DNA of 26,040 bases, taken from positions 1 through 26,040 of the forward strand of contig JBEKVD010000041.1 in NCBI GenBank assembly GCA_049514315.1. Reading direction: 5' to 3'. Within the stretch, counting starts at the first letter, position 1, and every line of letters starts with the position of its first letter. The notes beneath the pieces were generated by a model. That model worked only from the letters and a program-made list of their open reading frames with translations, searched no databases and was not told the origin of the DNA. The position numbers and the translations under genes are program-made. Shown here piece by piece: positions 16,946 to 26,040 of this stretch. This stretch comes from Candidatus Limnocylindrales bacterium. Its GTDB lineage: Bacteria; Chloroflexota; Limnocylindria; Limnocylindrales; CSP1-4.

Positions 16946-17369
16946 TCCTTCCTCCGCGGAGGCGGCCCGGTGCCGCAGTGGCGCCGACAACGTGGATCCG
17001 CGGCGGCCGTGGCCGTCCTGATCCCGCCGGCACCACCGACCATGTTGAAGGAAGGCTCATCCTTAATCAAGATACTTAGCATTTCCGAACAGATCGCGCC
17101 CACCGTGCGAGCCCCGGGCAGCCCTCGACTTGCGCTGGCGGTCGCGCCCGGTCACGAGATCCCGTGCAACACGGACCTGCGACCCTCGTCTCGCCGGCCG
17201 CGTCATCTGGTCGGAAGTGACTCCCAGCGCGCAGCCTTCTCCAGCAGTGCGCTGATCCGCCACGTCGGCCGACTCGTGGCCGCCACGGCCGATCCGATCG
17301 AGGTGATCACGCCTCCGAGACTCTTTCGCGCACGTCGAGCCTTCATCGAGCCTGCCGACGACGACGGGG

Positions 17370-17876
17370 CTACGCGTGACTGCCGTTCAAGGGGTGGTCA
17401 TACACGTAGAAGATGTAGTCCTGAGAGACGGTCCTGACGCCCAGATCGTTCAGCAGCCTGAGCAGTTGCGCCCGATGATCGGTGCCGTGATTGCCGACAT
17501 GGAGCAGCACCTGCCACAGGATGAGGTCCTTGTCCTCCCCCTCCGCGAACGGCTTCTCAAAGAGCATGTCGTCCCGTAGCTCCGCAAGATAGTCGCGCAT
17601 GCGTTGCTCAACGGCGTCCCAGTGGCTACGAATGCTGTTCCGATCGACAAAGGTGGCAGGATCGAGCGAGCCTGGGATCTCGACGCCTCGCAATCCGCTG
17701 AACCACGTGTCATCAACGCTCATGAGATGCACGACCTGGTTTCGCACCGATCCAGCGGAGTAGCTCGCGTCCCGCGTGAACTGTTCGTCGGAGAGCGACG
17801 TGATGTGAGCATCCCAGATGTTGCGGTTCTCACTGAAGTGGTAGTCGTAGAAATGACGGAAGGCTTCGGCGTTCAT
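17370..17876 (-). CDS. DinB-family (DinB_2/DUF664-like) metal-binding four-helix-bundle protein
   Basis: 168 aa with SVRNQVVHLMSVDDTWF and LLHVGNHGTDHRAQLLRLL, the His triad pattern of DinB-like proteins. Confidence 0.8.
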   Translation of the reverse strand: MNAEAFRHFYDYHFSENRNIWDAHITSLSDEQFTRDASYSAGSVRNQVVHLMSVDDTWFSGLRGVEIPGSLDPATFVDRNSIRSHWDAVEQRMRDYLAELRDDMLFEKPFAEGEDKDLILWQVLLHVGNHGTDHRAQLLRLLNDLGVRTVSQDYIFYVYDHPLNGSHA

Positions 17877-18164
17877 GTCGTAACGCGCTCCGAGCGGTGG
17901 AGTTCGACGGATATGACTCGACTAGGAAGGCGTGGAGGGCCTGGTCCCAGGCCGAAGGGTCCCCGCTGATGAGGGCGGAGAGGGGTTGCGGTTCATCTTG
18001 GGCGCCTCGGGTGCGGAATAGTCGCCCACGTATCTCTCTACCGGCCGTCGAAAGCAACAGCATGACCAAATGGTGCCAGCGGGTCCAACCGGAGCCTGTG
18101 TCTGGTGCCGCCGTCGACTCTTCGAGCCCATCGAGAGGTAAGCTCAGCGCAAGAGGGAGACGCA

Positions 18165-18794
18165 GTGATAAACGGAGTCGATGAGCGCGGGGTGCCGCTT
18201 CTGCCTCGGTCGTGGCAATACAGCGACCGGATCATCGCGGCGATAGCTACCGCGGCCCAGATCCACGCCGCCCAGGTGCGCAAGGGCACGACCATCCCGT
18301 ACCTGAGCCATCTCCTTGGCGCATGCTCGATCGCGCTCGACTACGGCGCTAGCGAGGACGAGGCTATCGCCGCCCTCCTCCACGATGCGATCGAAGACGG
18401 CGCGCCGACAGAGGCCGCCCGGGCGACGGTCTGGAGCTTCGGTGACGAGGTCGGCCGCATCGTCGAGGCTTGCACCGACTTGGACAGCCATCCCAGGCCG
18501 CCCTGGCGCGAGCGCAAGGAGTCGTACCTGGCGAGCCTCGCCACCGCGGACCACTCGATCCTGCTGGTCTCGGCGTCGGACAAGCTCCACAGCGCCCGCT
18601 CCGTCGTCCGCGACCTGCGCGCTGCCGGTGAGGATGTCTGGGGACGCTTCAGCCCCCCGAAGGGCGAGATCTTCTGGTACTACCGGGGCCTCGTCCTCGC
18701 CTATCGAGCCAATCCCGCGCACCCGAAGGCGCTCATCGACGAGCTCGACCGGACCGTGACCGAGATGGAGACCCTCGCGGGCATGACGCGCTGA
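18165..18794 (+). CDS. stand-alone RelA/SpoT-type HD-domain protein (small alarmone hydrolase-like)
   Basis: 209 aa with IHAAQVRKGTTIPYLSHLLG, AALLHDAIEDG and SASDKLHSARS, which parallel the SpoT hydrolase motifs H..Q.R, HP, LLHDxxED and ADRLHN. GTG 18165 has AGAGGGAG 5 nt upstream; the track start at 18105 is the alternative. Confidence 0.75.
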   Translation: MINGVDERGVPLLPRSWQYSDRIIAAIATAAQIHAAQVRKGTTIPYLSHLLGACSIALDYGASEDEAIAALLHDAIEDGAPTEAARATVWSFGDEVGRIVEACTDLDSHPRPPWRERKESYLASLATADHSILLVSASDKLHSARSVVRDLRAAGEDVWGRFSPPKGEIFWYYRGLVLAYRANPAHPKALIDELDRTVTEMETLAGMTR

Positions 18795-19207
18795 TGGCTG
18801 CCAGAGCTACGTATCTCTGCGGTGCCTGTGGCAAGGTCGCAGCGACGGTTACGCTCGTGCCACCCGGCCAGCCCGACCCGGCACCGGCGCGCGAGGCCCC
18901 TCGCGTCCGCCCGGCCACGGAAAGACCGTCAGCAATGTCTGGCTGGGCCCGGCTCGCGATCGACGGCGGCCCGGTCGGCCTCACCCGCGGTCCTGTACCG
19001 ATGGAGCAAGTCGTGATCGCTCTTGGAACCGGCGACGCGGCTGCGCTCTTTGAGCTTGAGCAGGAGTACGCACCCTTCTGGTGTCCCAGGTGCCGCGCTT
19101 CCTATTGCCGCGAGCACTACCGCTCGTGGCCGGTCTTTGACGATGGCTTCTTCGACTGCTTCCGTGGCGTCTGCCCGAAGGGCCACGAGCGGATCCTGCA
19201 GGATTGA
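18794..19207 (+). CDS. Cys-rich zinc-ribbon-like protein (137 aa), no family recognised
   Basis: The ATG shares one nt with the HD gene stop (TGATG). It has CGAC near the N-terminus, then CPRCRASYCREH and CFRGVCPKGH near the C-terminus. Confidence 0.65.
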   Translation: MAARATYLCGACGKVAATVTLVPPGQPDPAPAREAPRVRPATERPSAMSGWARLAIDGGPVGLTRGPVPMEQVVIALGTGDAAALFELEQEYAPFWCPRCRASYCREHYRSWPVFDDGFFDCFRGVCPKGHERILQD

Positions 19208-19893
19208 GGAAGGTCCTGCGAACTCATCGGGCGGAGCGAGGCGATGGGCTTGGAATAGCTGCAGGGTGGGTCTTTCGAGCTTCGAACGGAAAGCAACACC
19301 GTCCCCATGGTCTCGGCGCGAGGGGTGAACCCGGCACGATTGCCCGATCGTGCGCAGTGGAGCCAATTCCTCAGGTCTCGGCCATTGGGCTCGGTCTCTG
19401 CCGCTGGCAGTCGTGGCAGAGAACTCGGCATCGCATCAGGGATGCCCAAAGGCGACAGTTGCGCTAAGTCGGTTTGGGCGGCGGCCGGCCCGGGCCGCTC
19501 TCGGCGAACCTCGTCACGATCCAGCGACAGGTGTCAACGTCTGGCGGATCAGCGAGCCACTCGCTCTTCTCACGTCTCGGTGAAATACTCGGCGTATACA
19601 GTTCGGGTTCCGGTTCATTCGTGCGGTAGGCTGTATAGCAGCGTCGCGGCGAATCTCCGGCCGGAGAGGGAAGCTGGCTATGAGCGCTCCGGGACCGGGC
19701 GGACTTGCTGGTTCATACCGGCAACCGCAAGCGGGCGCAACGGAGGCGACCTCCCCGGAGTCGAGCAGGGCGCCTCACGTGCGAGAACCTGTGGCGGCAG
19801 GAGCGCCGCGATGTCCGACGGTGCCAGTTCAGGTGAAGAGCGTCTCGCAACCCATCGCCGATGCCGGGCGACGCGAGGCGGAGGGAGCTAGTT

Positions 19894-20118
19894 CGATGGC
19901 GGAGAGCTGGAAGACCGTCCGCGTCTTCATCAGCAGCACCTTCCGCGACATGCACGTACAAAGCGATCACCTGGCGCGACAAACTTGTGGAGCATTCGTG
20001 GGTCTCCCTCCGAGATATGGACCGCCGCAGCTATACCCGGGCGATCCGCGAGCAGCTCGACGCCTTCGCCGCCCGGGCCGGCGACGAGACGTTGCCGCGA
20101 ACAGCGCCGGGACCGTAA
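19894..20118 (+). pseudogene. micro-gene with a DUF4062-like N-terminal signature whose coding frame switches (frameshifted relic or recoding)
   Basis: GGAGGGAG lies 8 nt upstream of ATG 19894. MAESWKTVRVFISSTFRDMH is encoded with 100% GC3. After about 19955 the high-GC3 frame changes to the one ending at TAA 20116-20118, while the original frame drops to about 50% GC3 and runs to TGA 20145-20147. Confidence 0.45.
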
Positions 20119-20136
20119 CTGACGAAGGGGTGAGCC

Positions 20137-22608
20137 GTGGTCGATGACGCGACGAGCCAGCTACGCGCCTGGCTGGCGGCCCAGGTCGCCTGCTATGCCG
20201 AGGACTACCCGAGATACCAGCGCTACGCCGAGGTCTTGAGCGCCGTGCTGCGCGGCGCGGCAGACCGATTGGCCCCTGAGGCCATCGTCCAGGCGCGCCC
20301 CAAGTCGATCGCCAGTTTCGCCGAGAAGGCGCTGCGCAAGCGGGCGACGAGGACCGATCCCTGCCGGATGTTCACCGACCTGTGCGGTGCGCGGGTGATT
20401 GGCCGAACGCGCTCCGAGGTCGAGACGATGAGCTGCTTCGTCGTCGAGAACTTCGCGATCGACTGGGAGAACAGCGTCGACGCGAGCCAACGCCTTCGGC
20501 CGACGGAGTTCGGCTACCGCTCGGTGCACTACATCGTCACGCTGCGGCCCGACATCGATTACCGCGTCGACGTTCCCAACGCCGTGCTTGGCCTCAAGGC
20601 CGAGATCCAGCTGCGCACAGTGGCCGAGCATGCGTACAGCGACTTCGGCCACGACCTCACCTACAAGGGCGCATTTGCGCTGCCGCTCGCCTGGGAGCGT
20701 GAGCTTGCCGAGGCGGCGGCCAGCCTTGAGGAGGTCGACGGGACCTTCTCGCGGGTCGAGAACGGGCTGCGAGAATACGCGACCAATTACGGCCGATACC
20801 TGGGCGAGGAGAGGGCGCGTGCGGAGATCGACGACCTGCTGATCGTGCTCGAACACGTACCGGCGGACAGCGGGCTGGCCGACCGCATTGCACGGCTCGG
20901 AATCGCCCTGGCCGACTGGGCCTTGGTCGTCAGGGTGCTCTCGCCGTTCGTCGCCGCCGACGCCGCCCGAACCCCCCTCCCGGTGCTGCGCGACATGGGC
21001 ACGGCGCTCTGCCGGCTTTACCGTGACCAGCCGCGCGGCGAGGACTACCGCCGAGGTCAGCATTACCTGGAGCTGGCCAGCGCATCGGACGACATCGATG
21101 CCATCTGCACGTTCGCCGGCACGTGGAAGGGGGCCGACGACGCTCGGGCGCGCGACCTCTACCACCGAGCGTTCGAGCTCGATCCGACCAACCCCTATCC
21201 GCTCGGCAACTACCTCGAGCTCGAACTCGACCACGACCCGGCCGTCCTCAGGTCGATGGGGCCCGAGCTGCGCGGCGCGATCGAGCGCTGCGAGCACCAT
21301 ATCTCCGCCGGGATCAATCTGCCGTGGGCCCAGTTCGACCTCGGCAGATTCCACCTGCTCCTCGGCGAACCCTATGAAGCTCTGGCCGCTTACGCGGAGG
21401 CGATCACAACGAGCACGGCCGCCTTCATGATCGATACCTCGCTCGCCTCGCTGGAGCGGCTGGCAAGGGCTCTCGGTGACCAGCCCGGCTTCGACTGGGC
21501 TCGCCGGCTTCTCCTGCTGGGCTTGGCGTCTCGGTTCGGCTCAGAGGTCGCGCTCGAGCGGGTCAGGCAGCTTGCCTCGGCCGGCGTCGCTCCGCTAACC
21601 CCACCCGTCGTGATAGTGGCCGGAGGGACCGACCCGCGGCTGGAGGCGCAGCTACAGGGTTACGCCGACCTTCTCGCCTTCGGATTCGCGGACTTCAGCG
21701 GGACGATCCTCTCCGGTGGCACGACCGAGGGCATCAGCGGGATAGTGGGCGACATCGGCTCCGCGTCGGGCGGCCGCATTCGAACGGTCGGCTATCTTCC
21801 CGAACTGGTCCCGGCCGACGCGACCCGCGACTCGGACTACAGCGAGCTGCGGAAGACGCCAGGCCACGGGTTCAGCCCCCTCGAGCCGCTCCAGAATTGG
21901 GTGGATCTCGTGGCTTCCGGTGTCCCGGCGACAGGAGTGCGGGTAGTGGGGGTCAACGGTGGCCGTATATCCGCGCTCGAGTACCGCATCGCGCTCGCGA
22001 TGGGCTCGACCGTCGGCCTCGTCGCCGACAGCGGCCGCGAGGCCGGCCGCCTGCTCGGCGACGAGCGGTGGACGTCCTCACACCTGATTCGCCTGCCGGC
22101 TGATCCCGACACGATTCGCGTCTTCGTGACCCCCGCACCCGCGCCCCTGCCCGAGCCGACGCGCTCGACGCTCGGGCGCTTCATCCACGAGGAGAGCCGG
22201 CGGGAGCGAGTGCCACGTCCCGACATCGACCCCGCTCTCGCCGACTGGGATCAGCTGCCGGATGACTTCCGCAACTCCAATCTCCAGAAGGCCGATCACA
22301 TCGGCGAGAAGCTGCGGCGAATCGGGTGCATCGCCGCCCCGGAAGGCGCCCCCGGCGAGCGGGCGACCTTCACGCCTGAGGACATCGAGGCGATGGCCGA
22401 GCTCGAGCACGGCCGCTGGACAGCGGAACGGCTCCTGGCCGGCTGGACGTGGGGCGAGAAGCGCGACCCTGCGCGTCGGACGAGCCCGTATCTCGTCGCC
22501 TGGAGGGAGTTGCCGGAGGCGATAAGGGAGATCGACCGCCAGGCTGTGCGGCAGATCCCGGACGTTCTGGCGACAGTCGGCCTGTGCGTGCGATGGGCGA
22601 CGCCATGA
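20137..22608 (+). CDS. RelA/SpoT-synthetase (SAS/toxSAS-like) - TPR-like - SLOG/LOG-like - RyR-domain fusion protein (823 aa)
   Basis: Synthetase motifs are RPKSIASFAEK (20296-20328), DLCGARVIG (20377-20403), FGYRSVHY (20509-20532), EIQLRT (20602-20619) and HDLTYK (20650-20667). The helical/TPR-like region includes YHRAFELDPTNPYPLGNYLELE (21160-21225). Gly-rich Rossmann loops are VVIVAGGTD (21607-21633), LSGGTTEGISGIVG (21709-21750) and VNGGRISALEY...VADSGREAGRLL (21952-22056). RyR-like motifs are WDQLPDDFRNSNLQKADHIGEKL (22246-22314) and ELEHGRWTAERLLAGWTWGEKRD...REIDRQAVRQIP (22399-22560). The GTG start has GAAGGGG upstream. Confidence 0.85.
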   Translation: MVDDATSQLRAWLAAQVACYAEDYPRYQRYAEVLSAVLRGAADRLAPEAIVQARPKSIASFAEKALRKRATRTDPCRMFTDLCGARVIGRTRSEVETMSCFVVENFAIDWENSVDASQRLRPTEFGYRSVHYIVTLRPDIDYRVDVPNAVLGLKAEIQLRTVAEHAYSDFGHDLTYKGAFALPLAWERELAEAAASLEEVDGTFSRVENGLREYATNYGRYLGEERARAEIDDLLIVLEHVPADSGLADRIARLGIALADWALVVRVLSPFVAADAARTPLPVLRDMGTALCRLYRDQPRGEDYRRGQHYLELASASDDIDAICTFAGTWKGADDARARDLYHRAFELDPTNPYPLGNYLELELDHDPAVLRSMGPELRGAIERCEHHISAGINLPWAQFDLGRFHLLLGEPYEALAAYAEAITTSTAAFMIDTSLASLERLARALGDQPGFDWARRLLLLGLASRFGSEVALERVRQLASAGVAPLTPPVVIVAGGTDPRLEAQLQGYADLLAFGFADFSGTILSGGTTEGISGIVGDIGSASGGRIRTVGYLPELVPADATRDSDYSELRKTPGHGFSPLEPLQNWVDLVASGVPATGVRVVGVNGGRISALEYRIALAMGSTVGLVADSGREAGRLLGDERWTSSHLIRLPADPDTIRVFVTPAPAPLPEPTRSTLGRFIHEESRRERVPRPDIDPALADWDQLPDDFRNSNLQKADHIGEKLRRIGCIAAPEGAPGERATFTPEDIEAMAELEHGRWTAERLLAGWTWGEKRDPARRTSPYLVAWRELPEAIREIDRQAVRQIPDVLATVGLCVRWATP

Positions 22609-22651
22609 GGGCCGGGTGAACTGGAGCCGCCGATAGATCGCGCGGGCAGAC

Positions 22652-22885
22652 GTGGACCGCCTGGACGAGATCATCCAAGCCCGCGGGTGGACGAACGAAA
22701 AGGGAGGGACTGGGCTCTCCGATAGGCTGCTTGAAGAGCTGCGCGCGACCGACGCCACGCTCGCGATTCTCGATGTCGACTATGCCGACTGGGAAGTCCT
22801 ATACCGGATGCGTCTCCAGATCGAGCGCGATCTGCTGGTAGGCTGTTCAGTGGGTCAGGCCTGGCAACCAGGAGGTGAGACATGA
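22652..22885 (+). CDS. small hypothetical protein (77 aa)
   Basis: It starts with a GTG 44 nt after the fusion-gene stop, and its stop overlaps the cupin ATG (ATGA). The sequence looks helical (DRLDEIIQARGW...LLEELRATDATLAILDVDYADWEVLYRMRLQIERDLL). GC3 is moderate (~68%) and the SD is weak. Confidence 0.4.
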   Translation: MDRLDEIIQARGWTNEKGGTGLSDRLLEELRATDATLAILDVDYADWEVLYRMRLQIERDLLVGCSVGQAWQPGGET

Positions 22886-23259
22886 CGTTCAACGAGGACA
22901 TCGTCAGGCGAGCGAAGGCCAATTCGTACTTCCGCGAGGTCCTTGCAACCGGACCACACAGTCAGGTCGTGGTCATGAGCATTCCTCCGGGCGGTGACAT
23001 CGGCGAGGAAGTCCACGATGACGTGGATCAGGTGCTCGTCTTCGTCCAGGGCAGAGGAGAGGCCATCCTGAATGGCCAAGAGAGCGCGGTGGGCCCGGAT
23101 CGGCTGGTCCACGTGCCCTCAGGAACTCGCCACAACTTCGTGAACACCGGTGCCATTGACCTTCGGCTGTACACGATCTATGCCCCGCCCGAGCACGAGC
23201 CGGGCACAATCCATAAGACCAAAGCCGAAGCCGACGCGGCTCACGCAGCCGAGGATTGA
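22882..23259 (+). CDS. cupin-domain protein
   Basis: 125 aa with the cupin_2 pattern PPGGDIGEEVHDDVDQVLVFVQG...VHVPSGTRHNFVNTG. AGGAGG lies upstream of the ATG. Confidence 0.8.
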   Translation: MTFNEDIVRRAKANSYFREVLATGPHSQVVVMSIPPGGDIGEEVHDDVDQVLVFVQGRGEAILNGQESAVGPDRLVHVPSGTRHNFVNTGAIDLRLYTIYAPPEHEPGTIHKTKAEADAAHAAED

Positions 23260-23261
23260 AC

Positions 23262-23432
23262 TCCGTCGCCGCCGACCTGGCGGCGAAACCGAGCGCTTGA
23301 CCTGCCGCCGCAAGACCCGAGCTGGTGGCGAAGAACCAGGATCTCAATCTGTGTGGCATCGTCGGCTCGATGGTTGGGTGCGACAAAGGGGAGAAGCCGA
23401 CGAAGCATCAAGTACAGGAGCGAAGCAGGCAT
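23262..23432 (-). pseudogene. N-terminal relic of a DDE (rve-type, IS481/IS3-like) transposase, frameshifted and truncated
   Basis: MPASLLYLMLRRLLPFV...DATQIEILVLRHQL is followed, in a different frame, by VLRRQVKRSVSPPGRR. Together these resemble the common actinobacterial transposase N-terminus EILVLRHQLAVLRRQV.RP.FS..DR. The relic runs into the 3' end of the cupin gene and has no catalytic domain. Confidence 0.55.
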
Positions 23433-23672
23433 GGCGGCGATGCCGCCTCCCCCGCCATCGCTCAACACGCGGGCTGACTGATCGAGTTCGTGTACCCCAC
23501 GCGTTCTCAACGCGGTGAGGATCGGTTCACCACTCTGACCAGTCGCACAGACTCAGCGACTACAAGGGCCACCGAGCGAGACGGGGCCAAGAGTAACCTG
23601 GCCTGCGCAAGGTACCAGAAAGATGGCGGCGCAAACGCCCTCGGTGCACGCCGCAAGAGCGAGCGCGGCAGA

Positions 23673-23912
23673 TCAGCCGAAGTAAAACGACGGCTCGGCC
23701 GCGACGCGCATGCTCCGCTCGAGCATGGCGACGATCACGTCGGTCGAAAGACTCGTGCGGTGGGCCACGTAGTCGGCGATCAGCCGAGGCTCACCGGCGC
23801 ACCGCTCCAGCGCCCCCGGGTTCAGGCGGGGCCAGATGAGCATCGCCGCCCGCCCGTAGGCGCCCGAATTCGCCGACGTGCGCTGACGGGGAAACCTCGC
23901 CGAGGCGGGCAT
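23673..23912 (-). CDS. hypothetical protein (79 aa)
   Basis: GC3 is very high (~88%). GGGAAGG lies 8 nt upstream of ATG 23912. No family recognised. Confidence 0.55.
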   Translation of the reverse strand: MPASARFPRQRTSANSGAYGRAAMLIWPRLNPGALERCAGEPRLIADYVAHRTSLSTDVIVAMLERSMRVAAEPSFYFG

Positions 23913-24544
23913 AGCTGCGACCTTCCCCTGCGACATTGAGCGCCGACAAGAAGGGAGACCCACGCCTGTCTCAGGAGTCCGAGTATGCGCTCAATTGGGC
24001 GGCAGGGCAAGCGAAGCTGACACGGTCGAAGGACTGAGCGAGTAGGCTCCATCCGACCAGCCCAATAGCCCGAGGGCGCACAGGCCGTCAAGCAGGATTC
24101 ACATCCCGCCAAGGGAACACCCGGTGGCCCGGGCGATGCTTTCCGCGTCGCTATGACCGGCTGCGACCACCGGGATCACCTCGAGCTCGAGGGCCGTTCG
24201 CACGACCTGCACCTTTAGAGCAACGTCGTCGACTTCCTAGAGGACGCCGAGCGACGGGATGGTTGCGGAAACCACGGGCTGAGTCACAGCTGGTACCTCA
24301 ATCGGGCCGAATCCCCCAGCGGGCCAGTCTCGCCAGTGGCCTGATCCCGGCGGAGCGGGGGCCGTGTCTAGGAGCCGCCCGTGTATGCGCGCATTCTCCC
24401 GGGGTCTATGCCCGGACGACCACTACGGCTGGTTCTGGTGTCAAGTTAGGCCATGTGGCACCGCGCCCGACGCAGCCACTCGACTGGCCCGGCCGGGATC
24501 GGCAGCGGCGATTCGATTCGAGTTATCCGGGGAGTGGCAGCCTG

Positions 24545-24913
24545 TTAGGCCACGGGCTCGATATCTATGATCGAGGCCTCGGTGACGCCCTTGAGGAGCA
24601 CGAGACTCCAGTCGGCGTGCGGATCAGTGTCCATGAACTGCATGGACTCCCGCATCACCTTCGCATACTCGGTGGTCTCGTCCTTCTGCATCGCGGCCAG
24701 CTTGTCCATGTCGGCGTAGCTGCTGAGGCGTTCGAGGATCCGAAACTCCCCTGCGGTCTTCTCCGAAGTGAACACCGCGACGTACGTGCCCAGATACTCC
24801 GTGCCCTCCGGGTAGCTGCGAGCGATCCTCTCCTCGTTCGCTGCTAGCCACCGCTGGAAGGCTTCTGCCTGGCCTACGCGCACGCTGAACCCGCTCTCTT
24901 GAATGAAGCGCAT
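24545..24913 (-). CDS. hypothetical protein (122 aa), possibly a small alpha+beta (NIPSNAP/ABM-like) fold
   Basis: GGAGG lies 6 nt upstream of the ATG. The composition is globular and non-biased (MRFIQESGFSVRVGQAEAFQRWLAANEERIARSYPEG...). Confidence 0.7.
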   Translation of the reverse strand: MRFIQESGFSVRVGQAEAFQRWLAANEERIARSYPEGTEYLGTYVAVFTSEKTAGEFRILERLSSYADMDKLAAMQKDETTEYAKVMRESMQFMDTDPHADWSLVLLKGVTEASIIDIEPVA

Positions 24914-25245
24914 GGGAGACCTCCACAGGCTGGATACGGGTCGGTCTCGCCAGTGGCTCGGCGCGGTCCCGGCGGCCAGTGCATGGACCGCGCGTCATGG
25001 CTCCCCGTGAGGCTTGATTGTCCCACCGGCGTCCATGGCCCCCGACGAAGCGAGTCGACTGGCCGGACTACGCCGGGATCGTCAGCGGCCAGAGGGAGCG
25101 GGAGTTGAGGAAACACCAGCGGAGCGACTCACCTGACGTCCGCTGTTTGGTTCACCGGAGGATCATGGGCAAGTCCGTCCGGCGTGCTAACTGTCAGACG
25201 GCAGGCTTCGACAGTAAGGTGCTCAATCTGAGCTTGATTCGGGGT

Positions 25246-25293
25246 TGGCTGGCGAGGAAGGATTCGAACCTTCAGTTTCCTGATCCAGAGTCA
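25246..25293 (-). other. 3' fragment of a tRNA-Gln(CUG)-like gene (anticodon loop to CCA), a probable att-site or gene remnant
   Basis: The - strand reads UGA-CUCUGGA-UCAGG-AAACU-GAAGG-UUCGAAU-CCUUC-CUCGCCA-G-CCA. That is a canonical T-arm, a 7-nt acceptor 3' strand, discriminator G, encoded CCA and a C-U-CUG-G-A anticodon loop. No D-arm or matching 5' acceptor strand follows. Confidence 0.6.
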
Positions 25294-25890
25294 ATCAATG
25301 CTCACCGGCGTGCTACTCCTCGTGGGGTGCCAACCGAAAGGCGTCCAGTTAGGGGATGGAAACAACCTCAGACCGTGGCCCCTAACGCGACCGCTCAAGA
25401 TGGCCCGGCACCTGGCCGGGATCGTGGGTCACCAGCAGAGCGGGCGGGCAGGCGCGACAAGGGCGCCAGCTCGTCTGCCGCTGGCGTTCGGGCACCGCTC
25501 GGCCCCACCGGTCGAGATCGGGGGTTGGAAGCCGACAAGAGCGATGGCCCCCAGCACTCATCTAGGGGCCATCGATGCTCGTCGGGCCGGCGGGGCTACT
25601 TGCCCTTCTTGCCCTTCTTGTTCTTCTTCTTGTTGGCCAGTCTAGCCTCCTAACGGCGGGTCGACCATCACAGTGTAGGCCCGATAGATTCGGTCTCCTG
25701 CGACCGAACCAGGGCCGACGACAACCGACCGCGCGACGTGGTCTCTATGAAGAGAGCCCCGCGTGTCAAGGTCTTCGCCTGGAGGCGCCCGGGTGGGCGA
25801 GCAAGATGCGCTTCTCATGTCTCTATGGCCTCCTGGAGGGGAGGACTCGGTCGGGTTGGAGACAGAGGTGGCCCAAGTCATTGAGGGTCG

Positions 25891-26040
25891 TCAAGCGACC
25901 AGACCACGTGTGGGGCCTACCGCTCGGAACGGCTCCTGGCGCGTGAGCATGTACCAGATCGTGCCGGCGAGTTCGCGGGCGAGCTCGACTCGGGCGATCT
26001 TGCTGCCACGCTGCTTGCCGAGCCGGCGCTTCGTGCGTTG
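25891..26040 (-). CDS. IS110-family transposase, C-terminal 49 codons (gene continues beyond the window)
   Basis: The - strand is in frame from the window edge: QRTKRRLGKQRGSKIARVELARELAGTIWYMLTRQEPF...*. This matches the conserved C-terminal helix pattern of IS110/Transposase_20 proteins (K.A.VA.ARKLA..IW.ML). Confidence 0.7.
   Translation of the reverse strand, partial: QRTKRRLGKQRGSKIARVELARELAGTIWYMLTRQEPFRAVGPTRGLVA

Follow-up and report, generated by a model that had tools for sequence, protein, structure and literature searches.

The window analyzed here, i.e., the whole 26,040-nucleotide stretch of contig JBEKVD010000041.1 from Candidatus Limnocylindrales bacterium (Chloroflexota), carries a complete gene for a protein of 823 amino acids (aa) that joins a RelA/SpoT homolog (RSH) synthetase head to TPR-like, SLOG, and RyR modules. 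The gene and its four modules are listed below, with the sources of evidence in brackets.

20137..22608, forward strand: complete RSH-TPR-SLOG-RyR gene, 823 aa, GTG start (open reading frame (ORF) listing, Pfam, homologs, AlphaFold2 (AF2) model)
20137..20781, forward strand: RelP/RelQ-like RSH synthetase (nucleotide 3'-pyrophosphokinase) domain, residues 1–215, with motif residues R54-K56-S60-K64, D81-G84-R86, Y127-S129-H131, E156-Q158-T161, and H172-Y176-K177 (Pfam, profile search against PDB, Foldseek)
20782..21576, forward strand: all-helical TPR-like solenoid between the head and the sensors, residues 216–480 (AF2, Pfam, Foldseek)
21577..22146, forward strand: SLOG domain of the LSDAT (TRPM MHR1/2) type, residues 481–670, with the conserved loops VAGG (G496), SGGTTEGISG (G522, G527), NGGxIxxxE (G608, G609, E615), and SGRE (G633) (LSDAT_prok, AF2, Foldseek)
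22147..22608, forward strand: RyR-type unit of ~150 aa, residues 671–823, with a divergent first half and a canonical RyR repeat (Pfam, PDB, Foldseek)

A Shine-Dalgarno-like stretch (GAAGGGG) is located just 5' of the start at 20137. An antisense ORF of 397 aa overlaps the gene, and chance long ORFs do arise in DNA of 68% GC such as that of the window. The plus frame has 443 database matches, which include more than 120 full-length clusters with 48–100% identity and the same precomputed domains. Because only this frame has such homolog clusters, and because its catalytic and Gly-loop residues are invariant in 43 aligned homologs, 20137–22608 is a real gene and not a chance ORF of GC-rich DNA. 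In databases, the homologs are named only as "RyR domain-containing protein" or "ppGpp synthetase/RelA/SpoT-type nucleotidyltransferase."

The original prediction, made from the letters of the DNA, described a head with five unbroken RSH motifs, no HD, TGS, or ACT domain, and a TPR-SLOG-RyR remainder. This observation is confirmed. The motifs RPKSIASFAEK (residues 54–64), DLCGARVIG (81–89), FGYRSVHY (125–132), EIQLRT (156–161), and HDLTYK (172–177) are all present in the translation, as are all of the SLOG and RyR strings quoted at the time. The Pfam families RelA_SpoT (PF04607; residues 54–178, 49.4 bits, cut-off 27) and RyR (PF02026; residues 750–817, 47.3 bits, cut-off 27.4) are matched above their cut-offs, whereas LSDAT_prok, which represents SLOG (residues 490–654, 21.6 bits, cut-off 25.4), and TPR_2 (22.6 bits) are below threshold. 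No match to HD, TGS, or ACT was found in the protein by Pfam at E ≤ 1. The sole NCBIfam match is to the RelQ/YjbM equivalog GTPPhKinYjbM (38.4 bits, cut-off 320), and NCBIfam has no model for the 823-aa protein. Likewise, the sole PADLOC match is a weak one (40 bits) between the head and the candidate PDC-S33, and no PADLOC model covers the whole protein.

The sub-threshold SLOG and TPR calls are retained because family-level Pfam searches and structure matches agree with them. Among 43 family members, RelA_SpoT and RyR are each detected in all 43, LSDAT_prok in 37 (counted at E ≤ 1e-3; best E 1.2e-8), and TPR families in 22, and a stand-alone relative reaches 37.8 bits for LSDAT_prok. In the alignment of 43 homologs, the head residues R54, K56, K64, D81, G84, R86, Y127, S129, H131, E156, Q158, T161, H172, Y176, and K177 are invariant or nearly so (with S60 at ≥90%), as are G496, G522, G527, G605, G608, G609, E615, and G633 in SLOG and E757, H758, and W770 in RyR. 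The AF2 model of the full-length protein has a predicted local distance difference test (pLDDT) score of 87.9 and a predicted template-modeling (pTM) score of 0.82, contains ~14 helices in the TPR-like middle, and is disordered only at the substrate (G-) loop (residues 119–126) and at residues 174–201. In Foldseek searches against PDB, the head matches RelQ (5ded), RelP (6ex0/6ewz), and 2be3 with TMt values of 0.57–0.67, the middle matches the TPR arrays of SPY/OGT, and the C-terminal ~200 residues match RyR3 Repeat1-2 with a TMt of ~0.5 (6uhh, 9l9b, and 9ls7, including ATP/ADP/AMP-PCP entries). The RyR unit also matches RyR repeats at the level of PDB sequences (E 3e-17). For a domain model of residues 480–670 (pLDDT 91.7), the best match is TRPM2 MHR1/2 with ADP-ribose (8srh, E 5e-7), and further matches include TRPM4/8, the MoCo carrier protein 2iz5 (TMt 0.76), TM1055, and LOG (5zbk; LOG-AMP structures). 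The MHR1/2 region of TRPM2 constitutes an ADP-ribose (ADPR) site and belongs to the LSDAT branch of SLOG (PMC13143021). Pfam, family-level Pfam, and the structural searches thus agree on the RSH-TPR-SLOG-RyR architecture. The protein belongs to the RSH superfamily by its synthetase (SYNTH) domain, which has all five motifs in a RelA_SpoT fold; to the LSDAT (TRPM MHR1/2) branch of the SLOG superfamily; and to the RyR domain family by both profile and Repeat1-2-like helical fold. Judged from these modeled matches, both C-terminal modules are nucleotide-binding folds, with the ligand as a prediction.

LOG enzymes carry a PGGxGTxxE motif, which the invariant G608-G609...E615 (NGGxIxxxE) of the SLOG domain resembles, and LOG-AMP structures are among the fold matches. 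Accordingly, one alternative is that the SLOG domain is a LOG-like enzyme and that the bifunctional protein makes or matures a new signal, e.g., from a nucleotide or ADP-ribose derivative that is first pyrophosphorylated and then cleaved. However, the best fold and profile matches are to the non-catalytic TRPM/LSDAT branch, and the occurrence of SLOG-RyR alone or with a kinase output (see below) fits a sensor better. Such a catalytic role is therefore considered very unlikely.

For the type of the RSH head, all sequences in PDB were compared with a profile built from 23 heads of the family. RelP/RelQ-type enzymes are matched with E values of 1.9e-18 to 1.5e-13, whereas matches elsewhere are marginal, with RelSeq at 0.015, CapRel (7ztb) at 0.021, RelA at ~0.04, FaRel2 (8pu3) at 0.19, and none for Tas1; for the toxic small alarmone synthetases (toxSAS), this comparison covers the solved structures of CapRel, FaRel2, and Tas1. 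The head aligns motif by motif with RelP/RelQ at ~25–30% identity, including the GYRSxH loop typical of small alarmone synthetases (SASs), and has a family-specific, invariant E124-F125 insertion directly before the GYRS loop. These patterns suggest that the head is a diverged relative of the small synthetases that make (p)ppGpp rather than of the toxic enzymes known. This kinship, as read from sequence, favors a soluble alarmone product, although similarity does not fix the acceptor.

These results do not bear out the toxSAS-like head that had been proposed. The proposed analogy to CapRel, in which a protein antitoxin domain senses a phage capsid protein, is also a poor fit, given that each of the two C-terminal modules has a nucleotide-binding fold, unlike a pseudo-zinc-finger antitoxin. 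As an alternative of this kind, the protein may be an abortive-infection toxin in which the C-terminal 600 aa serve as a built-in antitoxin with direct recognition of a phage protein, while the head pyrophosphorylates tRNA 3'-CCA ends or makes (pp)pApp and thereby kills or arrests the cell. There is precedent in toxSAS and the fused CapRel (PMC7229694), TPR arrays are able to bind proteins, the family is found in a conflict-island context, and the head has its weak PADLOC match to PDC-S33. However, given the head profile, the nature of the C-terminal modules, a conserved partner that is of a small-molecule pyrophosphohydrolase type with no protein antitoxin, and the intact state of the window gene despite the loss of that partner, this alternative is regarded as unlikely.

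The family was surveyed in one genome per species (185,579 species), and relatives are encoded in at least 308 of these genomes. Genomic context was compared among the best 80 loci plus the window (81 loci in total). The best 80 are nearly all from metagenome-assembled genomes (MAGs) and include Chloroflexota (~18), Actinomycetota (~14), Gemmatimonadota (~10), Planctomycetota (~7), and Bacteroidota (4), as well as Proteobacteria, Firmicutes, Verrucomicrobiota, and others. Ten are from archaeal MAGs assigned to Bathyarchaeia, Methanobacterium, Methanomicrobia, Methanoregulaceae, Halobacteriota, and Thermoplasmatota. Full-length identities are 39–77%, and the homologs nearest to the window are from Chloroflexia (77%) and Anaerolineaceae (74%) MAGs. 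Such scatter over unrelated bacterial phyla and archaea is the pattern of horizontal transfer. The full-length architecture was not found on 72,556 plasmids or in 50,697 phage records, in which only head-only or RyR-only matches occur, and BFVD likewise has no full-length architecture, only stand-alone phage RelA/SpoT and RyR proteins. Some of these phage RyR proteins are ~140 aa long and thus near the size of the RyR unit, e.g., A0A514A401 of Arthrobacter phage Xenomorph and A0A0A0YVI6 of Erwinia phage phiEa2809; as pure speculation, their ligand might be the nucleotide of the RyR unit, which they would bind or sequester.

When all neighboring ORFs of the 81 loci were clustered, one tight partner emerged, namely a ~140-aa NUDIX protein (Pfam NUDIX, 69–74 bits) with a conserved Nudix box. 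This partner was overlooked in the original prediction. As counted with a family HMM, the Nudix gene is adjacent to and co-oriented with the RSH gene in 43 of the 81 loci and present anywhere in the locus in 52. It is usually located ~50 bp upstream of the RSH gene, and in Gemmatimonadota immediately downstream. The pairwise distances of Nudix and RSH proteins correlate with each other (Mantel r 0.53; none of 2000 permutations reached this value), and therefore the two genes are inherited together. The closest NCBIfam families of the partner are NudI, NudG, and MutT, all below cut-off, and the full-length protein matches the PADLOC defense candidate PDC-S07 (80.5 bits). Both MutT and NudG break (p)ppGpp down into pGp, in vitro as well as in vivo (PMC5845004). 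A role of the partner as an ADPR-pyrophosphatase was considered and is disfavored, given the NudI, NudG, and MutT matches and the marginal ones to NudE/NAD diphosphatase. Taken together, the usual partner is a MutT/NudG-like Nudix protein with an intact catalytic box that is co-inherited with the synthetase and sometimes fused to it.

The fused forms were found among homologs of the SLOG and RyR modules. An exhaustive search with SLOG+RyR only returned 687 clusters (50% identity) at E ≤ 1e-30, and architectures were sorted for the top 150. Among these 150, the order RSH-TPR-SLOG-RyR is found in ~110 clusters, a single NUDIX-RSH-TPR-SLOG-RyR polypeptide with Nudix at the N-terminus in six, and an extra N-terminal RyR unit in one; the remainder are shorter TPR-SLOG-RyR or SLOG-RyR forms, some of which are certainly fragments. 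In P0244 (926 aa), SLOG-RyR is joined to a Ser/Thr protein kinase domain in place of the RSH head. Conversely, a stand-alone gene of ~145 aa for the RyR unit is located just upstream of the RSH gene in six loci (L032, L041, L044, L054, L058, and L079), one of which (L079) has the order RyR, Nudix, RSH-TPR-SLOG and lacks a C-terminal RyR. By these fused and split forms, Nudix, RSH, SLOG, and RyR are linked as a single functional unit. Moreover, SLOG-RyR is read as a portable input module, or sensor, because the kinase fusion and stand-alone forms exist.

In the window, tblastn with the partner Nudix proteins found no intact Nudix gene, and a remnant was recovered immediately upstream of the RSH gene. 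The remnants and one further gene of this region are as follows.

19854..19985, forward strand: remnant of the first ~30–45 codons of a DUF4062-STAND NTPase gene (MAESWKTVRVFISSTFRDMH...) (tblastn, sequence read)
19978..20118, forward strand: remnant of the C-terminal ~35–40 codons of the Nudix partner, with the Nudix box missing (tblastn)
18105..18794, forward strand: small alarmone hydrolase (SAH) gene, RelH-like, HD_4, 1.3 kb upstream of the RSH gene (Pfam, PDB)

The Nudix match covers 19978–20097 (E 3e-11, 60% identity) and aligns to residues 110–150 of 156 in the L054 protein and residues 190–224 of 227 in the L006 protein. Because the partners match only by their last ~35–40 residues, the Nudix box is gone in the window. 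Similarly, the DUF4062-STAND neighbors of other loci match 19854–19979 (E 4e-9). The STAND remnant abuts the Nudix remnant in a different frame, and the two form a joint scar at 19854–20118. An intact order of STAND, Nudix, and RSH genes is found in L040 and L051. The simplest reading of these sequences is that a single deletion, with one end near the start of the STAND gene and the other near the end of the Nudix gene, removed the partner here.

The SAH gene product matches Pfam HD_4 (68.4 bits) and RelH in PDB (7QOE, E 2e-44; 7QOC, E 5e-25), both of which are SAH structures (PMC9293644). Its stop overlaps the start of a zinc-finger-like ORF of 137 aa (labeled DUF8328 on the parent contig), and the two genes, which span 18105–19207 on the forward strand, look like a two-gene operon. 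None of the other 80 loci has an HD_4/SAH gene beside the RSH gene. The SAH may act as a surrogate eraser for the lost Nudix, as a single-locus link rather than a family trait.

The GC content is 0.70–0.73 at 1–16.5 kb and 0.63–0.68 from ~17 kb on (17000–26040), and an IS110-family transposase gene is located on the parent contig at about the right end of the window (starting there; L001:15755-16624). These features suggest that the region from ~17 kb is an acquired, decaying island. It may be argued that the RSH gene itself is a silent relic of such an island with no current function, considering that both its operon partner and the STAND gene upstream have been reduced to remnants, that no sigma-70-like promoter is found upstream, and that the GC content is lower and a transposase is nearby. 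However, the ORF is uninterrupted and keeps every family-invariant residue of the 43-homolog alignment. The scan around the gene, which found neither a sigma-70-like promoter nor a terminator, is uninformative for a non-model organism with 68% GC. Five metagenome contigs from different samples are identical to the window in DNA sequence, and therefore selection cannot be judged from them either way. A relic is considered extremely unlikely.

Apart from Nudix, the surroundings of the family vary and include several recurrent genes. TIR-domain proteins (TIR-NACHT, TIR-TPR, and TIR-LVIVD, some of them ThsB_TIR-like) are found in 22 of the 81 loci, giant DUF4062-NACHT/STAND-TPR/WD40 proteins in 19 (34 for the broader STAND/repeat cluster), and SLATT_1 effectors with two transmembrane (TM) segments in six. 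In 19 loci, a ClpB-like double AAA+ ATPase of ~760 aa is located beside the Nudix and RSH genes (e.g., L006:3913-6543, L007:4084-6381, and L009:5174-7474). These loci are mostly from high-GC Actinomycetota, Chloroflexota, and Gemmatimonadota, and the ATPase, which has partial PADLOC matches to PDC-M37B and DolB, is usually paired with a protein of 165–250 aa of no known family. In addition, a TM-TrkA_N-RyR membrane protein is encoded in 14 loci (e.g., L018:2472-4280, L017:10969-12792, and L036:3938-5755); this count is based on blast clusters, as a jackhmmer count also picked up the RyR domain of the RSH protein and came out too high. These proteins of ~600 aa begin with a membrane segment of two helices, continue with a TrkA_N (RCK-like) domain, and end in a RyR domain, and their genes often directly follow the RSH and Nudix genes. 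They could be channel-like effectors that sense the same signal. A relative, P0173, has four RyR units. Recurrent gene orders are TIR, Nudix, RSH (L024, L049, and L056); Nudix, RSH, TIR (L023); RSH, Nudix, TrkA-RyR (L017, L019, and L036); and SLATT beside the pair (L035 and L037). One large cluster of seemingly conserved neighbors was rejected, as its ORFs are shadows of the ClpB-like and Nudix genes on the antisense strand of GC-rich loci. By analogy, the recurrence of TIR, STAND, and SLATT genes and the SLOG-RyR-kinase fusion support the general idea, raised in the original prediction, of a sensor-gated pyrophosphokinase in a conflict setting. As a whole, that earlier interpretation is partly supported.

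What is observed in the window is one chain that combines a RelP/RelQ-type head, catalytically complete by its residues, with TPR repeats and two nucleotide-binding folds. In the picture proposed for it, which we give about an even chance of being correct, the alarmone synthetase is gated by a nucleotide and has a Nudix as its eraser, and the window holds an orphaned copy. In the resting state, TPR-SLOG-RyR would hold the head inactive. The trigger would be a small nucleotide that binds SLOG and/or RyR, with an ADP-ribose-like or adenine nucleotide as candidates, and in many loci its source may be the neighboring TIR proteins. Cyclic ADP-ribose isomers made by TIR activate the SLOG-bearing effector ThsA by way of that domain (PMC11204291). 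Once freed by ligand binding, the head would use ATP to pyrophosphorylate a purine nucleotide at its 3'-OH, and the resulting alarmone of the (p)ppGpp or (pp)pApp type would slow or stop growth. The Nudix protein would degrade the alarmone (or, less likely, the trigger), thereby setting the threshold and resetting the switch. The Nudix-SYNTH-sensor fusions may then be regarded as a non-homologous equivalent of the HD-SYNTH-regulatory arrangement found in long RSHs, with all but SYNTH replaced. In the window, most of the STAND gene and the stretch of the Nudix gene that encodes its catalytic part would have gone with the deletion, the synthetase gene being spared, and the RelH-type hydrolase 1.3 kb upstream might now act as the eraser.

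Several points weigh against this picture. The product, the ligand, and the autoinhibition are inferred throughout, for every family member. Identity of ~25–30% to RelP/RelQ does not establish the acceptor specificity, and the head has its own E124-F125 insertion. The SLOG domain keeps the LOG-like NGGxIxxxE with an invariant Glu and so may be an enzyme rather than a sensor. The Nudix gene is absent from the window and from ~20 loci in which both flanks are present, and therefore the eraser is either not obligatory or encoded elsewhere. TIR neighbors are found in only about a quarter of the loci and not in the window, and the SAH linkage, being limited to one locus, may be a coincidence.

Alternatively, the family may be a physiological, non-immune stress enzyme, i.e., a modular analogue of long RSHs that makes (p)ppGpp according to the adenine-nucleotide or ADP-ribose status of its own cell, as sensed through SLOG/RyR, and that would have a dedicated Nudix hydrolase, no role in phage defense, and no acute toxicity. 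The RelP/RelQ-like head and the Nudix-SYNTH fusions, which mimic HD-SYNTH, are consistent with this explanation. The persistence of many loci and the window gene without Nudix argues against a lethal toxin, and the plasmid and phage collections hold no full-length member, nor does PADLOC have a whole-protein model. Weighing against it, relatives occur in only ~308 of 185,579 species genomes, scattered at 39–77% identity in a pattern of horizontal transfer. Moreover, the surroundings are variable yet enriched in TIR, STAND, SLATT, and ClpB-like genes, and the partner Nudix matches the defense candidate PDC-S07. A physiological role of this kind is thus possible but somewhat doubtful.

By the defining features of the characterized systems, the protein is neither a RelQ/RelP ortholog nor a long RSH, and it is not part of a toxSAS module with a cognate antitoxin or of Thoeris. 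RelQ/RelP (YjbM/YwaC) share the catalytic fold, the five synthetase motifs, and the GYRSxH loop, and provide the best profile and structure matches; however, they are single-domain proteins of ~210 aa, whereas the window protein has 823 aa with three extra modules, and its family has the E-F insertion before GYRS and a Nudix partner. With 38.4 bits against an equivalog score of 320, and not being a single domain of ~200–250 aa, it is not a RelQ/RelP ortholog. Long RSHs (Rel, RelA, and SpoT) likewise combine a synthetase, a hydrolase, and a regulatory C-terminus, and the Nudix fusions give the same hydrolase-SYNTH-sensor order. In contrast to them, the window protein has no HD, TGS, ZFD, or ACT/RRM, and its SYNTH begins within the first ~50 residues; Nudix replaces HD as the hydrolase, nucleotide-binding folds stand in place of ribosome/tRNA-binding sensors, and the profile similarity is weak (E 0.015–0.05). 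With toxSAS/CapRel, the family shares an RSH-family enzyme checked by an adjacent or fused element, as well as the genomic-island context, and SAH-type hydrolases can neutralize toxSAS (PMC7229694). The differences are a head distant from CapRel and FaRel2, a Nudix partner, and SLOG and RyR sensors; among the 81 loci there is no conserved small antitoxin neighbor, the conserved neighbor being Nudix, with SAH in the window only.

For type I Thoeris, the likeness lies in a SLOG joined to an enzymatic effector in ThsA and in the TIR genes, some ThsB_TIR-like, of 22 of the 81 family loci. The effector of ThsA is a SIR2 NADase, whereas here it is an RSH synthetase, and the SLOG here is of the LSDAT/TRPM branch and accompanied by TPR and RyR modules. 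TIR is not obligate and is absent from the window, and neither a SIR2 or Macro domain (Pfam) nor a PADLOC Thoeris match was found. Finally, TRPM2 (SLOG MHR1/2 plus the NUDT9-H Nudix) and RyR Repeat1-2 have the same two cytoplasmic nucleotide-binding folds and, in TRPM2, a SLOG-Nudix pairing. However, these are eukaryotic ion channels, whereas the present family has an enzyme as its output and a Nudix that is MutT/NudG-like, not ADPR-pyrophosphatase-like.

To our knowledge, alarmone synthetases are known in three forms, namely ribosome-controlled long RSHs, small SASs that are constitutive or transcriptionally controlled, and toxSAS toxins. The present family would add a fourth mode of control, with gating by SLOG/RyR nucleotide binding and a Nudix eraser instead of an HD hydrolase, and would extend RSH enzymes into several archaeal lineages. 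It would also provide a tractable prokaryotic system for the ligands of TRPM-type SLOG and RyR-repeat domains, and the orphan copy in the window would be a natural experiment on how a synthetase is tolerated without its partner. As the original prediction had supposed, no characterized protein with the RSH-TPR-SLOG-RyR combination was found in the literature searched, nor was a description of the Nudix pairing, although an earlier computational mention is possible, e.g., in the original SLOG/LSDAT survey. The novelty lies in the input module and the class of eraser, both of them new for an RSH synthetase, in a family that is large, coherent, and uncharacterized. A more far-reaching and rather improbable extension is that bacteria and archaea have a nucleotide relay in common, with the family as its output stage, in which an ADP-ribose-like nucleotide, TIR- or NAD-derived, would act on the TRPM-type SLOG and RyR together and cause an alarmone burst, with Nudix setting the threshold. 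If this were true, NAD-based immune signaling would be linked to stringent-type growth arrest, RSH-based signaling would be present in Archaea for the first time, and the TM-TrkA_N-RyR proteins would be channel-like effectors sensing the same signal. Furthermore, the modules later used by eukaryotes in TRPM2 and ryanodine-receptor channels (SLOG plus Nudix, RyR repeat) would be found here in a prokaryotic assembly.

The other genes flanking the RSH gene in the window include ordinary ones, i.e., a DinB-family protein gene (17370–17876, reverse strand) and a small cupin gene (22882–23259, forward strand), neither of which recurs beside RSH elsewhere. A c-di-GMP-II-GAG riboswitch aptamer is located at 24930–25014 on the reverse strand (Rfam RF03169; 67.8 bits against a gathering score of 40, full model length), directly upstream of an ORF of 122 aa without a Pfam match (24545–24913, reverse strand). 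This riboswitch is a second nucleotide-signaling element, ~2.3 kb from the RSH gene.

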